From sequence record PP328843.1: a DNA stretch of 64,000 nucleotides; one strand, 5' to 3'. The notes beneath the pieces were generated by a model that ran no database searches, was not told the DNA's origin, and saw only the letters and a list, made by a program, of their open reading frames with translations. The DNA is from Escherichia phage 215Ecol030PP. Below are positions 15,697 to 44,396 of this stretch, piece by piece (positions within the stretch are counted from its first letter, which is position 1; each line of letters starts with the position of its first letter). The position numbers and the translations under genes are program-made.

Positions 15697-16371
15697 TTAT
15701 ACATCTTCTTTTCTGAATAAGTAAATTAAATTCTTAAGAGCTGAACTTGTTACATCATATTTTCCTTTAAGCGCCTTTACAACCGGGCCTGTTGCTGGTT
15801 TACCTAAAGAAACCCATAACTCGTGTATTTCGCTTTTAAGTGGTTCATGCCAATGCGGTGCTTTTCTTTGCGCCCTTGAAGTTCCTTCTGAAATCTTTTT
15901 ATTTCCGCCATTCGAATAAAACTTTTTCATTACTTCAGATTGCCGAGCTTTTCGTTCTGCTCTATTTTGGGCTATACGTTGTGAATTCTTCATCCGAGTT
16001 TTTGTTTCAGGGTTGTTTAATCTAAGTTTATGTTCTAATCGTTGTTGCTCAGTCCATTTTCTTCCTTCTCCACCCTGACCACCAGGAGAAATATTAATGC
16101 AAGTATCTGGGTGTTTACGTTTTAATGCAGATATTAGCTCGCGTTCAACTTCATATGATTTTTCTCTAGAACCATGGCATTTTGACCAACGTATTTTATA
16201 ATTAAAACCATACTTACGATATATGTTCCATAGTATTTTGCCTGAACCCGGATATTTATCATCATATGGATTTGCAATAAATGATTCATGTTTCCCAGCG
16301 TACCAAAAGACGCCTTTCGGCGTCCTAACTTTTACTATATATGTTCTATAAAATTTTTGTTTAATACCCAT
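15697..16371 (-). CDS. segF: GIY-YIG homing endonuclease SegF-like, 224 aa
   Basis: GIY-YIG core (YIVKV ... WYAGKH); free-standing next to gene 56; ATG at 16369-16371 (track start is an upstream TTG). Confidence 0.75.
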   Translation of the reverse strand: MGIKQKFYRTYIVKVRTPKGVFWYAGKHESFIANPYDDKYPGSGKILWNIYRKYGFNYKIRWSKCHGSREKSYEVERELISALKRKHPDTCINISPGGQGGEGRKWTEQQRLEHKLRLNNPETKTRMKNSQRIAQNRAERKARQSEVMKKFYSNGGNKKISEGTSRAQRKAPHWHEPLKSEIHELWVSLGKPATGPVVKALKGKYDVTSSALKNLIYLFRKEDV

Positions 16372-16879
16372 TATCTTGACGTTCAAAATTATGTTTATTT
16401 TTCAAATAATAAAGTTTAAAGATTTCTTCCGCATTCATTCCAAGGCCAGCAAACATATTTAATACGAAATGAAATATATCCACAAGCTCAAATTTAATTT
16501 CGAGCTGATCTTCTGGGGACATTTCATCAATGCGTTTTTCTTGCGCTTCAATATAACGTGCTTTCCATTTTTTCCAAACTGCCGATGCATCTTTTTCACC
16601 ACGTGACATTTCACCAAGAGAAGTCAGAAGTTCGCGGAATTCATCGTCAATGCAGTCTTTTTGTTCACGCATCCAAGAAACAACATCACCTGCAGTAGCC
16701 AAATCATCAGGATGACGGTTATATTCAGGTTTATCTTTAGCTAAACGAATCTGCAGAGATTTCTGCATGTCAAGCATTACCTGCAGCGGGTCTTTTTCAT
16801 CACCGAGAATATCCCAATATTCATTTTGAGCTTTATCAGCGCCTTCGATCAGTTGACTACATTCGTTAAAGTAAGCCAT
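16361..16879 (-). CDS. 56: dCTP pyrophosphatase gp56 (MazG-like dCTPase/dUTPase), about 172 aa
   Basis: MazG-type NTP pyrophosphatase; ATG at 16877-16879 with AAGGA SD (track start is an upstream TTG). Confidence 0.85.
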   Translation of the reverse strand: MAYFNECSQLIEGADKAQNEYWDILGDEKDPLQVMLDMQKSLQIRLAKDKPEYNRHPDDLATAGDVVSWMREQKDCIDDEFRELLTSLGEMSRGEKDASAVWKKWKARYIEAQEKRIDEMSPEDQLEIKFELVDIFHFVLNMFAGLGMNAEEIFKLYYLKNKHNFERQDNGY

Positions 16880-16939
16880 TATTTTTCCTTTCAATTCATC
16901 AATAAGTTAAATAATTATATCATTTGAGTATGTAAGCAA

Positions 16940-17719
16940 TTAATTAAAAATATATACTTCATCAGTTCCATTCTTTTCTTTGGAATGATATATGTTAAAG
17001 ACGTATTTTTTATTAAGATGCTTAACATTATATTTTTTAGACCATTCTTTAAGAAGAGTGTTTTCCTTTCCGTGATGCTCTAAAACATTCGACAGTCCAA
17101 ATTTTATTCCTCTGTCATTTAAAGAATCTAAAAGATTTAAAAGGTCTTTTTCTTCTTCTTCTGACCAAAATTTATTATAATCAGCAACTGTTATAAGATA
17201 TGGAGGGTCCACATATACAAAATCGCCGTCTAGAATTTTGACATCTTTAAAATGCAATGAACTAAAGATTATTTTATCACAATTTTGTTTAAAGTGATTA
17301 AAGCGTTTTTCACTATTTTTGTTTATAGTTCTTTTTCCAAACGGAGTAGTAAAATTTCCTTTATCGTTTATACGAATCATATTACTAAACCCGTGAAAAT
17401 GAAGAACATAAAGTAAAAGAGGATCTCTAGTTTTATTATAATCTTCACGTAATTTCAAAAACTCTTCTTTTGATGTTTTTGATAGTTTATATTGCTTTAT
17501 TACTTTTAATACGTCATCCCATGATACATTAATAAGACGCTTATACATTTCAATAATTGGTTCTTGAATATCATTGGCCAATACAGGACCATTGACGTTC
17601 AAAGACACTGATAAACCTCCACAAAATAAATCCACGAATCTGTCATATTTTGGAAAGTGAGGCTTAAGTTCAGGTAATAATGACTGTTTATTACCTGTAT
17701 ACGCGATAGCTCCTAGCAT
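16940..17719 (-). CDS. dam: DNA adenine methyltransferase Dam (N6-adenine, GATC-type), 259 aa
   Basis: DPPY catalytic motif and N-terminal AdoMet-binding region; ATG at 17717-17719. Confidence 0.9.
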
Positions 17720-17829
17720 TATATTCTCTCATTTATTGCAGCAAAAATGAATTATATAATTCTTCATCATATGTATTTGATAGTAATACTAACACGTTTT
17801 GCGATAAATATTAATTTAAAGGAGGACAT

Positions 17830-18030
17830 ATGGTACAAAAATTAATGGCACTTGTTGATGCCATAAAAGGTAATAAGAAACGTATAGCTTTTACTATTTC
17901 TGCTATGATAGGAATTTTACTCTGGAACTTTATTTTATCACCTGTTGCAATTGCACATGGTATTAATATTCCAATAGTTACTCTTGATACATTCGTAGAT
18001 TTAGCATTTGCTTTAGTTGGGTTAATTTAA
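17830..18030 (+). CDS. plus-strand small membrane protein (two predicted TM helices), 66 aa
   Basis: Only plus-strand ORF outside minus-strand coding sequence; strong SD AAAGGAGGA at 17818-17826 then ATG at 17830; hydrophobic segments. Confidence 0.4.
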   Translation: MVQKLMALVDAIKGNKKRIAFTISAMIGILLWNFILSPVAIAHGINIPIVTLDTFVDLAFALVGLI

Positions 18031-42664: not shown

Positions 42665-42973
42665 TTAGTCTTCTATGATATCTCTATCATATCCAAGTGA
42701 AATGAGAGTTTCTTTGAAGTGTTTAATGTTCTTTTGTCTAGAATCATTAATGAAAATGACTGGATAACGAATGTTAAGAGATGTGAATCCAGCGCGTTTA
42801 GCAAGAGATACAATCAGCGGACGATCATACTCAATCTTACCATTATTTGTAAGAACTTTATAGAAAGTAAAAGGAGCATTGAGCTCCTTTAGAAGTTTTG
42901 TAACTGATTGACATCCAGGACAACGACCTACTTCATCTGGAATTCCATAGACTTCAATCTTATTTTGTTTCAC
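42665..42973 (-). CDS. nrdH: glutaredoxin-like protein NrdH, 102 aa
   Basis: Redox-active CPGC motif near N-terminus; apparent GTG start. Confidence 0.8.
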   Translation of the reverse strand: MKQNKIEVYGIPDEVGRCPGCQSVTKLLKELNAPFTFYKVLTNNGKIEYDRPLIVSLAKRAGFTSLNIRYPVIFINDSRQKNIKHFKETLISLGYDRDIIED

Positions 42974-42975
42974 AA

Positions 42976-43188
42976 CTATTCCTTACTAAGAGCAGCATTC
43001 AGCTTGTTAGTAATTTTATCCAGACGCTCACTGAACTCACTGGAAGATAAGCCTTTTTCTGGAGAAATTAAACTAATCACGAAAAATATAGCAATAAAAG
43101 GAATAAGGAAAATAGCTCCAACTGCCATAAACAGAAAGAATGTTACAGTTGTAAGAAAATCAGCTAAACCTTTACGAAATTTATACAT
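42976..43188 (-). CDS. small membrane protein, 70 aa
   Basis: Two hydrophobic segments. Confidence 0.5.
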   Translation of the reverse strand: MYKFRKGLADFLTTVTFFLFMAVGAIFLIPFIAIFFVISLISPEKGLSSSEFSERLDKITNKLNAALSKE

Positions 43189-43303
43189 ATTTTACCCTTA
43201 ATTGATTAACCAAGCATTGATAAGCACTAAACTATACTGCGAATAAAATTCTGGACCAAAATGAAAAATCATATCATTTATAGTATCCATAATGCAATTC
43301 AAT

Positions 43304-43774
43304 TTAATCATGTTTCCACACCCCATCGGTATTTGACCAAAGTCGCTGATTATCTGATCCTCGCCACAACTTTTTGGTCGGAAGATTTTTCTCATACTTC
43401 CCATCAATAATAACATCAACATATTTAAGCATTTCTAGTTGTTTAATATCTTCAAACTTATATCCTGTCCACAACCAGATATCTTTCTTCGGAAATCTTG
43501 CTTTAACCCAAGAAACTAAATTTGAAATCTCTTCTCGGTTCTGTGGATAAAGTGGGTCACCACCGGTTAAGGTAAGGCCTTGGATATACGATTTGCTTAA
43601 ATGGGACGCAAGTTCTTTAACGGTATTCATAGTGAATAACTGTCCGTTACGAGCATTCCAAGTACTACGATTATAACAACCTTCGCATTTATGCAAACAT
43701 CCAGTGACGAAGAGAACGACCCTGCATCCAGGACCATTAACAAAGCAGCACGGGTATATTCTATCATAATTCAT
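43304..43774 (-). CDS. nrdG: anaerobic ribonucleotide reductase activating protein NrdG (radical SAM), 156 aa
   Basis: Radical SAM CxxxCxxC (CLHKCEGC); ATG at 43772-43774 (track ORF extends upstream into mobC). Confidence 0.88.
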   Translation of the reverse strand: MNYDRIYPCCFVNGPGCRVVLFVTGCLHKCEGCYNRSTWNARNGQLFTMNTVKELASHLSKSYIQGLTLTGGDPLYPQNREEISNLVSWVKARFPKKDIWLWTGYKFEDIKQLEMLKYVDVIIDGKYEKNLPTKKLWRGSDNQRLWSNTDGVWKHD

Positions 43775-44396
43775 CTTTATATTTCCAAGTATATCCCTTA
43801 TGAATAGATTGAATTCCTTTGCAACATTTATAAACAGCAGAATGAAAAAATCCTGCATTTCTTATTTCAGTTGCTCCAGTTAGTTCTATTGTATTTCCGT
43901 CTGGTGAATAGCCAATAACCGTTTTGGTGTTAAAGCGATTTCTAGAACTATTTTTGATATGCTCTTTATGACTAGTAGACAAAGTTCTTCCTGTTAGCCC
44001 ATCAGATATCCTTTTTCCAAAATCATCAGGAAGAGTTACTTTAGACCTAGCTATGCTCATTAGCTTCTTAGTTTTATCGCTTCTTTTTGCGCCACGCTGA
44101 TTTTCAAATTTCTTAGCTTTTGCATACGCGTATTGTGAAGAAGTAACTTTTCTATGCTTACTATTACTCATTATCCAATATGCATCATACATCTTTCCAC
44201 CATATATTTTAGCCAATAAATGGTGAGCAGTATAGTGGGCCTTATAAGTTAAAAATACTAAGTTGTCTAAATCATCTGAACCACCCATACTTCTTGGAAT
44301 TATATGATGAAGTTCATACCCGGCTTTAGTTTGACGGGGCTTAGATGGGTGTTCAGCAGAATTAACTAGATTTGAATAGATTCTGTCATAATTCAT
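43764..44396 (-). CDS. mobC: MobC-like HNH homing endonuclease, 210 aa
   Basis: HNH motif LHHIIPRSMGGSDDLDNLVFLTYKAHYTAH; N-terminus MNYDRIYS; inserted between nrdD and nrdG. Confidence 0.78.
   Translation of the reverse strand: MNYDRIYSNLVNSAEHPSKPRQTKAGYELHHIIPRSMGGSDDLDNLVFLTYKAHYTAHHLLAKIYGGKMYDAYWIMSNSKHRKVTSSQYAYAKAKKFENQRGAKRSDKTKKLMSIARSKVTLPDDFGKRISDGLTGRTLSTSHKEHIKNSSRNRFNTKTVIGYSPDGNTIELTGATEIRNAGFFHSAVYKCCKGIQSIHKGYTWKYKDEL

Follow-up and report, generated by a model that had tools for sequence, protein, structure and literature searches.

A dense set of free-standing T4-type homing endonuclease genes beside essential genes in the early region of Escherichia phage 215Ecol030PP

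Bacteriophage T4 carries 15 homing endonuclease genes, amounting to 11% of its coding potential, of which 12 are free-standing and lie intergenically between conserved genes (PMC2988022). SegA cuts uvsX, SegF cuts gene 56 and MobA targets gene 39 (PMC2988022, Table 1), while the targets of MobB, MobC and MobD were listed as unknown in the 2010 review by Edgell, Gibb and Belfort (PMC2988022). Homing has been demonstrated experimentally for SegF and MobA, and nicking or cleavage together with preferential inheritance in mixed infection has been reported for MobA and MobE (PMC2988022; bioRxiv 10.1101/2022.08.31.505936). Endonuclease-initiated gene conversion of this kind explains the marker exclusion seen with T2 (PMC2988022). 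Here we analyze a 64,000-nucleotide (nt) stretch of Escherichia phage 215Ecol030PP (sequence record PP328843.1), referred to as the window, whose T4-like early region contains six free-standing homing endonuclease genes that are very probably mobile by intronless homing, along with an nrdD intron from which the endonuclease has been deleted.

The window is collinear with the start of the T4 genome, from rIIA through regB, with every gene on the minus strand. Its nucleotide identity is ~96% to T4 and 95.4% overall to T2, and the source is a Tequatrovirus other than T4. Five free-standing endonuclease genes described for T4 (PMC2988022), mobA, segF, segA, mobB and mobC, recur in this phage: insertion sites, orientation, neighboring target genes and overlaps all agree with those of T4. 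Set against T4, this ~96% identical backbone has an intact mobA, lacks mobD and has lost I-TevII, and the beta-glucosyltransferase gene (beta-gt) is exchanged for a T2/T6-type beta-alpha-glucosyltransferase accompanied by an extra Seg gene. The six genes, with the amino acid (aa) identities and family matches on which their assignment is based, are:

2960..3778, minus strand: mobA, HNH free-standing homing endonuclease, 272 aa (PHROG 655, E = 2.5e-57; Pfam HNH, 20.1 bits)
15697..16371, minus strand: segF, GIY-YIG-family free-standing endonuclease (98.7% aa identity to T4 SegF; PHROG 314, E = 1.9e-23)
23673..24338, minus strand: segA, GIY-YIG free-standing endonuclease (99.1% aa identity to T4 SegA; Pfam PF01541 GIY-YIG, 3.4e-9)
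25182..25823, minus strand: extra Seg-family GIY-YIG gene, 213 aa, not in T4 (PHROG 314, E = 8e-30)
38485..39279, minus strand: mobB, HNH free-standing endonuclease between alpha-gt and a-gt.2 (98.9% aa identity to T4 MobB)
43764..44396, minus strand: mobC, HNH free-standing endonuclease between nrdD and nrdG (99.5% aa identity to T4 MobC; Pfam HNH, 5.5e-6)

An earlier note on this DNA, made from the sequence alone, had proposed six intact open reading frames (ORFs) of homing endonuclease type. All six are present at these coordinates on the minus strand, each with a homing endonuclease signature, and are confirmed by Pfam and PHROG matches and by identity to T4. Names such as segA-like and mobB-like placed the genes in the right families but understated the relationship, as these are T4's own genes: five of the six correspond to T4 mobA, segF, segA, mobB and mobC, with full-length tblastn identities of 98.7% (SegF), 99.1% (SegA), 98.9% (MobB) and 99.5% (MobC) at the protein level, and only 25182-25823 has no T4 counterpart. 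The start codons of segF (16371) and segA (24338) agree with the annotated T4 starts. The span of 15697-44396 given for the set omits mobA, itself on the note's list, and the extra Seg gene lies between gene 42 and the beta-alpha-glucosyltransferase gene and not beside uvsX.

The encoded proteins have the same lengths as their functional relatives (SegF 224 aa, SegA 221, MobB 264, MobC 210, MobA 272 and the extra Seg protein 213). MobA, MobB and MobC match PHROG 655 ('homing endonuclease') with E = 4e-43 to 2.5e-57, and share both an N-terminus of the form xNYxxIY and the HNH block HHI[IL]PR.MGG.DD..NLV.LT...H..AH. The Pfam HNH scores of MobC (26.9 bits) and MobB (22.6 bits) exceed the 21.4-bit cut-off, with MobA just under it. 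MobB also matches NUMOD1 twice (9.5e-25) and an I-HmuI NUMOD-like domain. PHROG 314 includes SegA, SegF and the extra Seg protein. In SegA, NUMOD3, a DNA-binding region C-terminal to the nuclease domain, is matched at 1.3e-6; SegF gave no Pfam GIY-YIG or NUMOD3 match from its single sequence. Searches of the 64 kb with the six proteins, T4 MobD and I-TevII as queries returned no further HNH or GIY-YIG paralog or fragment besides the I-TevII remnant in nrdD.

Together the six genes occupy 4230 nt, or 9.0% of the first 47 kb. The T4 late-promoter consensus TATAAATA is absent within the genes and from the 150 nt upstream of each, and occurs three times on that strand in the whole window; the embedded promoters described in the review (PMC2988022) could not be confirmed with this simple motif. 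The cassettes are promoter-poor and packed between, or overlapping, phage genes of the same orientation, and therefore would ride existing transcripts.

To count carriers among related phages, the genes with their flanks on both sides were used as megablast queries against 50,697 phage records; the counts depend on megablast sensitivity and are inflated by many near-duplicate T4 laboratory records. The earlier note had named universal presence at fixed sites as one result that would speak against homing; instead, each gene is a minority insertion. mobA occurs in 41 of 672 matching records, segF in 45 of 540, mobB in 23 of 690, mobC in 31 of 839 and the extra Seg gene in 77 of 485, a carriage of roughly 3-16% per gene, and these polymorphisms have precise borders. 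segA and the extra Seg gene occur together in one of 509 records, and among the matching records only Salmonella phage Manna combines segA, the glucosyltransferase gene, the extra Seg gene and gene 42. With a concatenated six-gene query, at least one gene was found in 204 records (346 loci); among these, T4 laboratory strains alone reach five genes, and the maximum for Manna is four. In the homologous 47 kb of T2, none of the six sites is occupied and the neighboring genes are intact or fused: the topoisomerase gene is fused, gene 56 directly adjoins the soc region and uvsX the glucosyltransferase gene, nrdD directly overlaps nrdG, mobB is missing and nrdD has no intron. The polymorphism is reciprocal, in that the one endonuclease gene of T2 in the homologous stretch, which lies within an ~860-bp insertion between genes 46 and 47 (annotated at 11115-11729 of the T2 stretch), is missing from the window, where the site is empty (~35563-35575).

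Sequence divergence around the insertions is distributed as would be expected if the genes had recently homed. Within 600 bp of the six insertions, identity to T2 is 90.0%, compared with 96.5% elsewhere (Mann-Whitney p = 4e-9); this distance also takes in 14 of the 25 100-bp bins that differ most from T2 (p = 1.7e-6), and none of 5000 random placements of six sites gave flank identity to T2 as low. The most diverged flanks are those in gene 56 (75%) and the 5' end of uvsX (77.5%), followed by nrdG/nrdD at mobC and the 3' end of gene 42. Conversely, the five endonuclease genes shared with T4 are 99.14% identical to it (31 mismatches in 3588 nt), while the rest is 96.04% identical (Fisher p = 2e-28), a value not attained by any of 20000 random draws of five segments of matching size. 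Of the 204 carrier records, 114 have a best-matching copy with at least 99% identity. These comparisons suggest that the endonuclease genes are younger than the backbone. Taken together with the mobC tract described below, the flank divergence and the identity to T4 support, at the level of sequence comparison, a history of homing with co-conversion and target-site immunity.

The two worst flanks relative to T2 coincide with the published targets of SegF and SegA (PMC2988022), which in the window are:

16361..16894, minus strand: gene 56 (dCTPase), known SegF target (PMC2988022, Table 1)
22489..23664, minus strand: uvsX, known SegA target (PMC2988022, Table 1)

segF is placed between gene 56 and soc, overlaps gene 56 by 11 nt and is absent from T2. 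On the gene 56 side, the 600 bp adjoining it are 75.2% identical to T2, against an average of 95.4%, making this the most diverged flank. segA lies directly upstream of uvsX and is absent from T2 and most relatives; the adjoining 600 bp of the uvsX 5' part are 77.5% identical to T2, and the 1-kb flank is 99.3% identical to T4.

The gene without a T4 counterpart, at 25182-25823, is part of the block of differences from T4 that is most relevant to the endonucleases (24365-25822), in which the T4 beta-glucosyltransferase is replaced by a 280-aa T2/T6-type beta-glucosyl-hydroxymethylcytosine (HMC)-alpha-glucosyltransferase plus the extra Seg-like ORF. The features that bear on it are:

25814..26554, minus strand: gene 42 (dCMP hydroxymethylase), the predicted target of the extra Seg endonuclease from allele linkage
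26027..26053, minus strand: recoded gene 42 patch, codons 168-176, a predicted target or immunity site
24343-25185: beta-glucosyl-HMC-alpha-glucosyltransferase, T2/T6-type (Pfam TAGT; annotation in T2, T6 and RB14)

The 280-aa glucosyltransferase carries the same annotation in T2, T6 and RB14. With alpha-gt also present, the phage, whose backbone is otherwise T4-like, probably glucosylates its DNA in the manner of T2 and T6. The ~630-bp endonuclease insertion is seamless, its ATG overlapping the end of gene 42 by 10 nt and its TGA overlapping the glucosyltransferase ATG by 4 nt, and the latter junction recreates the ATGA overlap found at the empty T2 gene 42/glucosyltransferase site.

Single-sequence searches with the extra Seg protein found no GIY-YIG domain in Pfam and nothing meaningful with phmmer against the PDB. 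A 30-sequence profile of its family finds the catalytic domain of I-TevI (1LN0, E = 0.007), with the GIY, YIG, Glu and Asn elements aligned. An AlphaFold model (predicted local distance difference test, pLDDT, 85.4) has I-TevI (1MK0) as its best fold match in the PDB, with probability 1.00, a template modeling (TM) score of 0.66 normalized to the target, and 2.9 A. The C-terminus of the family has an invariant Cys-x2-Cys...His...Cys arrangement (C189, C192, H205, C209), and NUMOD3, weak in this protein (0.0027, below the cut-off), is present in several homologs. Alignments to SegA and SegF are partial, with only 26-36% identity. The 64 detectable homologs lack a descriptive name, being called 'hypothetical protein' or, twice, 'group I intron endonuclease'; the ORF is labeled 'homing endonuclease' in some GenBank records. 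In REP3 the ORF (2342-2982 of the REP3 stretch) is split into two annotated ORFs by a 1-nt deletion in an A-run, an example of decay.

We compared gene 42 alleles from five carriers of the extra Seg gene and six non-carriers. Positions with a fixed difference are concentrated in the final 240 nt of gene 42 (nt 502-528, 594-603, 654-663 and 690-738), and none occur in the downstream glucosyltransferase of these phages. Over the last 141 nt of gene 42, carriers are 98% identical to each other and 80% identical to non-carriers. At codons 168-176, 17 of 27 nt are recoded, changing VVFGF to CWAGY within the conserved MRSND....RND motif and including codon-family switches (Arg CGC to AGA, Ser TCA to AGC). 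This motif adjoins Asp179, the residue that gives dCMP hydroxymethylase its cytosine specificity. Across the collection, identity to the window allele of gene 42 is bimodal, with 86 records at 95% or above, 399 at 80-90% and zero between; the extra Seg gene is found in 77 of the ~86 records with the high-identity allele and in none of the 399 with the common allele. Distant homologs of the endonuclease (56-70% identity, in three other T4-like backgrounds) always lie directly downstream of a gene 42 homolog, with a next gene that varies, and gene 42 of three distant carriers encodes [C/V]WAG[Y/F] despite different nucleotides. In phage vB_EcoM_CE1 (ON229909) the recoded allele is present (96.5%, query 650-879) and the extra Seg gene is apparently absent, which may represent an empty site that is immune, either because the endonuclease was lost or because conversion was partial.

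The tight linkage of the extra Seg gene to the recoded patch leads us to predict gene 42 as the target, with the recoded allele as the putative immune form. On balance we favor, with reasonable rather than high confidence, the view that 25182-25823 belongs to an uncharacterized lineage of free-standing GIY-YIG endonucleases dedicated to gene 42, which would cleave the VVFGF allele in the active-site-coding region ~80-240 bp upstream of the insertion, carriers being immune through a CWAGY allele kept with the endonuclease down to 56% protein identity. As far as intronless homing of SegF at gene 56 and SegG at gene 32 (Belle et al. 2002; Liu et al. 2003) is summarized in PMC2988022, the anatomy is the same: a GIY-YIG gene lies just downstream of a conserved nucleotide-metabolism gene, with allele-linked divergence 80-240 bp inside that neighbor and none on the other side. 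The difference is that the neighbor is gene 42, encoding dCMP hydroxymethylase, rather than gene 56 or gene 32. No report of an endonuclease at the gene 42/glucosyltransferase junction, or of its cleavage or homing, was found in a literature search that covered few subscription papers.

A second candidate target is suggested by mobC, which overlaps the start of nrdG by 11 nt and adjoins the following feature:

43450..43774, minus strand: 5' part of nrdG, a putative co-conversion tract travelling with mobC, from the identity gradient to Klebsiella phage Boboto

This part of nrdG is only 54-88% identical to T2 and is the most diverged segment relative to it. Two Klebsiella phages, Shark_ER15 and Boboto (genus Jiaodavirus), have a ~100% identical mobC and a nrdD, gene 49 and nrdH region that is only 67-73% identical to the window. 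Beside mobC, the first ~300 bp of the 5' part of nrdG retain 90-96% identity to Boboto, and further away the values are 56-78%; nrdD, on the other side, is only ~60% identical right from its border with mobC. This is the shape expected of a conversion tract begun from a break on the nrdG side. The gradient indicates that mobC has moved between genera, and its asymmetry hints at a MobC target in the 5' part of nrdG.

The other border of mobC also has unusual features. In the Klebsiella Jiaodavirus stretches (3106-3330; 3109-3348), an extra ~200 nt with a small annotated ORF lie between mobC and nrdD and do not align with the window; they could derive from duplication or displacement of the nrdD 3' end. 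In the window, nrdD has 16 nt near its 3' end (44418-44433) that are missing from T2 and T4; this insertion changes the final ~8 codons to give KEMVKRVKHA-stop instead of KEIMHRVKHQ-stop and shifts the stop codon to 44409-44411, 12 nt upstream of the mobC ATG, leaving the old-frame remnant ggttaaacaccaATGA (region 44409-44433). The insertion may be connected with mobC, as a scar or as a change conferring immunity.

The topoisomerase locus contains a mobile element of a type already described, in which mobA is associated with the translational bypass of gene 60:

2783..3888, minus strand: whole mobA mobile cassette, with borders from the window-versus-T2 alignment
2792..2841, minus strand: 50-nt translational bypass (coding gap) of gene 60, part of the mobA cassette, from the T4 alignment (T4 feature 2803-2852)

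The cassette splits the gene for the topoisomerase large subunit into genes 39 and 60, and T2, which is without it, has one fused gene. MobA/bypass elements form a ~1.1-kb mobile cassette that is recent within clades, measuring 1097-1106 nt with intact MobA proteins of 269-279 aa (bioRxiv 10.1101/2022.08.31.505936); the ~1.1-kb cassette and 272-aa MobA found here fit both sizes. Over 231 nt the bypass region differs from T4 by one substitution, with the take-off GGA-UAG and landing GGA retained. mobA itself is 99.0% identical to T4 at the nucleotide level and is uninterrupted, in contrast to the T4 reference AF158101, in which it is annotated as a pseudogene. We place its start at the GTG at 3778, which overlaps the end of gene 39 by 23 nt, because the resulting N-terminus shares the xNYxxIY pattern of MobB and MobC and because the review agrees, giving a GUG start with a 23-bp overlap for mobA and an 11-bp overlap for segF (PMC2988022). 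To the extent that the cassette of Bonocora et al. (2011) is described in bioRxiv 10.1101/2022.08.31.505936, the copy in the window is a standard intact member of its clade, with no material difference. The remaining Mob gene, mobB, is likewise absent from T2.

The decayed intron gene that the earlier note had listed beside the six ORFs is real:

45689..46167, minus strand: group I intron in nrdD, 479 nt, endonuclease ORF lost, from alignment with the intron-less T2 nrdD

Its group I core matches Rfam RF00028 at 70.9 bits (cut-off 50 bits; 45968-46203, minus strand). The 479-nt insert is precisely delimited against T2 nrdD and its exons join in frame. Compared with the T4-type I-TevII nrdD (sunY) intron of 1033 nt, the insertion point is the same and the core is intact; what distinguishes it is a 566-nt deletion. 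Relative to the intron of JM10 (Mosigvirus), this is a single clean deletion between two AAGAC copies (junction 45879/45880), which removes codons ~14-202 of the I-TevII-type ORF, including the catalytic domain, and shifts the frame, leaving ~54 C-terminal codons at 45721-45882. The decay of the intron ORF is thus one recent microhomology deletion and not slow erosion. The intron is full length in every one of the 40 best intron-bearing records, and the deletion appears to be private to this phage; length arithmetic had pointed to phage ELT1 as a sharer of the short intron, which was ruled out when a direct search returned a full-length one. Outside the deletion the intron is 99.8% identical to that of JM10 and 97-99.8% identical to full-length introns, and the C-terminal part of the JM10-type ORF differs substantially from T4 I-TevII (~55% identity to the remnant). 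This pattern indicates that the nrdD intron, too, has moved between genera (Tequatrovirus and Mosigvirus). With its intact endonuclease ORF missing, the intron alone would no longer be self-mobilizing.

The course of events that we envisage for the free-standing genes follows intronless homing as known from T4. In a mixed infection with a relative that lacks the gene, the nuclease would cut or nick a conserved sequence in the neighboring essential gene of the other genome, the targets being the known ones in gene 39 (MobA), gene 56 (SegF) and uvsX (SegA) and the predicted ones in gene 42 (extra Seg) and the 5' region of nrdG (MobC). The break would be resected and repaired by T4 recombination with the endonuclease-carrying genome as template. 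Repair would copy the endonuclease gene together with an adjoining stretch of the essential gene into the recipient, a co-conversion that would be seen as localized marker exclusion. The carrier would be protected by the recoding or interruption of its own copy of the target. The cutting, repair and co-conversion steps are established in the literature for SegA, SegF and MobA, and we infer them for the copies in the window and for MobB, MobC and the extra Seg protein.

Several points weigh against this account. The activity of the copies in the window is deduced from intact ORFs and motifs, MobB and MobC were given as 'not determined' for activity in the 2010 review (PMC2988022), and a counterpart of the catalytic Arg27 of I-TevI was not identifiable in the alignment of SegA, SegF and the extra Seg protein; the Y-x-GSG arrangement seen in that alignment is the same in the experimentally active SegA and SegF. 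The divergence signal is weak at mobA, whose flanks are 95-96% identical to T2, and modest at mobB. Part of the flank divergence and allele linkage could stem from ordinary mosaic recombination between lineages, and the record counts are subject to the inflation and sensitivity noted with them. If such recombination were the whole explanation, the six genes would be accessory ORFs swapped at hotspots, with nuclease domains irrelevant to their distribution. Several nuclease-free blocks do differ from both T4 and T2, as modular mosaicism predicts. The six insertions, however, are single-gene, base-precise cassettes beside conserved genes, the flanks have clustered allele-linked recoding that includes codon-family switches in an active-site motif, the identity gradients center on the endonuclease gene, and chance is excluded by the random placement tests. 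As homing of SegF and MobA has also been shown experimentally (PMC2988022; bioRxiv 10.1101/2022.08.31.505936), we give general mosaicism almost no credence as the sole cause.

It is also very improbable that the genes were inherited vertically from a T4-like ancestor and persist as relics, occupying the same sites by descent and now immobile or inactive, even though five of the six are at exact T4 positions in a genome ~96% identical to T4, MobB and MobC activity was undemonstrated in the 2010 review (PMC2988022), and decay does occur, as seen in the I-TevII deletion, the mobA pseudogene of the T4 reference and the frameshifted extra Seg gene of REP3. Old unconstrained relics should be more diverged from T4 than the backbone, and the endonuclease genes are less so (99.1% versus 96.0%); moreover, copies in phages from other genera, with 67-73% backbones, are 99-100% identical, and all six ORFs are full length with intact motifs. 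A further alternative leaves the mechanism the same and concerns why the genes persist, holding that they are kept mainly for the benefit of the phage, through competitive exclusion, regulation or the amplification and exchange of useful loci, rather than by selfish spread. Marker exclusion does favor the carrier's alleles of essential genes (PMC2988022), SegB aids immune evasion by amplifying anti-defense loci according to a 2026 paper (PMC13096335), and overlaps with neighboring genes hinder clean loss. Nevertheless, most related phages thrive without any of the six, these genes have decayed repeatedly, and no beneficial function is apparent within the window, making this a possible but rather doubtful explanation. 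We retain selfish spread by intronless homing as the preferred reading. The same interpretation, intronless homing with marker exclusion, had been offered in the earlier note, and it draws support from the polymorphism, the flank divergence, the identity of the endonuclease genes to T4, the mobC tract and the literature.

The window differs from T4 in discrete blocks, and those that also differ from T2 and are without nuclease genes lie at 7414-7759, 27347-27608, 40826-41087, 48040-48423, 54577-55725 and 56793-57756. When the ORFs of every T4-different block were searched for nuclease domains, none was nuclease-like; they encode a glycosyltransferase, DUF4031, a y05I-like factor, RlaP, a motB-like protein or unknown products. 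T4 mobD was missing from the 64-kb window in a search with T4 MobD, and its site is occupied by a 153-aa membrane-like ORF (56789-57250) and a 173-aa y05I-like putative transcription factor (57253-57774). The ~1.15-kb insertion relative to T4 at 54577-55725, between nrdC.10 and nrdC.11, holds a DUF4031 ORF (54635-54898), a 49-aa ORF and a 161-aa ORF without a family match (55169-55654). The ~260-bp insertions at 27347-27608 and 40826-41087 were considered as copies of one small mobile element, which was ruled out because they are mutually unrelated; each has one small ORF, one of them with a signal/lipoprotein-like N-terminus, and neither is nuclease-related. A short sequence (~20-60 nt) at 27607-27660 recurs intergenically at 6518-6580, 53148-53169, 54555-54578, 55071-55091 and 59248-59294, and probably represents a promoter or translation-initiation motif that early genes have in common.

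The density of homing endonuclease genes beside essential genes, and their reading as agents of homing, is already-known T4 biology, and our results match that established knowledge. What is added is a sixth, uncharacterized Seg gene with a predicted target in gene 42, a hint of MobC action on nrdG, and quantitative evidence for recent and even inter-genus spread. The main value of the observation itself is correct annotation. The dense T4-type endonuclease set is not limited to laboratory T4, since a natural mosaic relative has it together with a sixth gene. Sequence data alone carry strong quantitative footprints of recent homing, including transfer of mobC and the nrdD intron between genera. 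The target predicted for the extra Seg endonuclease, the active-site codons of gene 42, is concrete and testable, and a new site-specific nuclease whose target is defined and for which an immune allele exists in nature could serve in the engineering of T-even phages.

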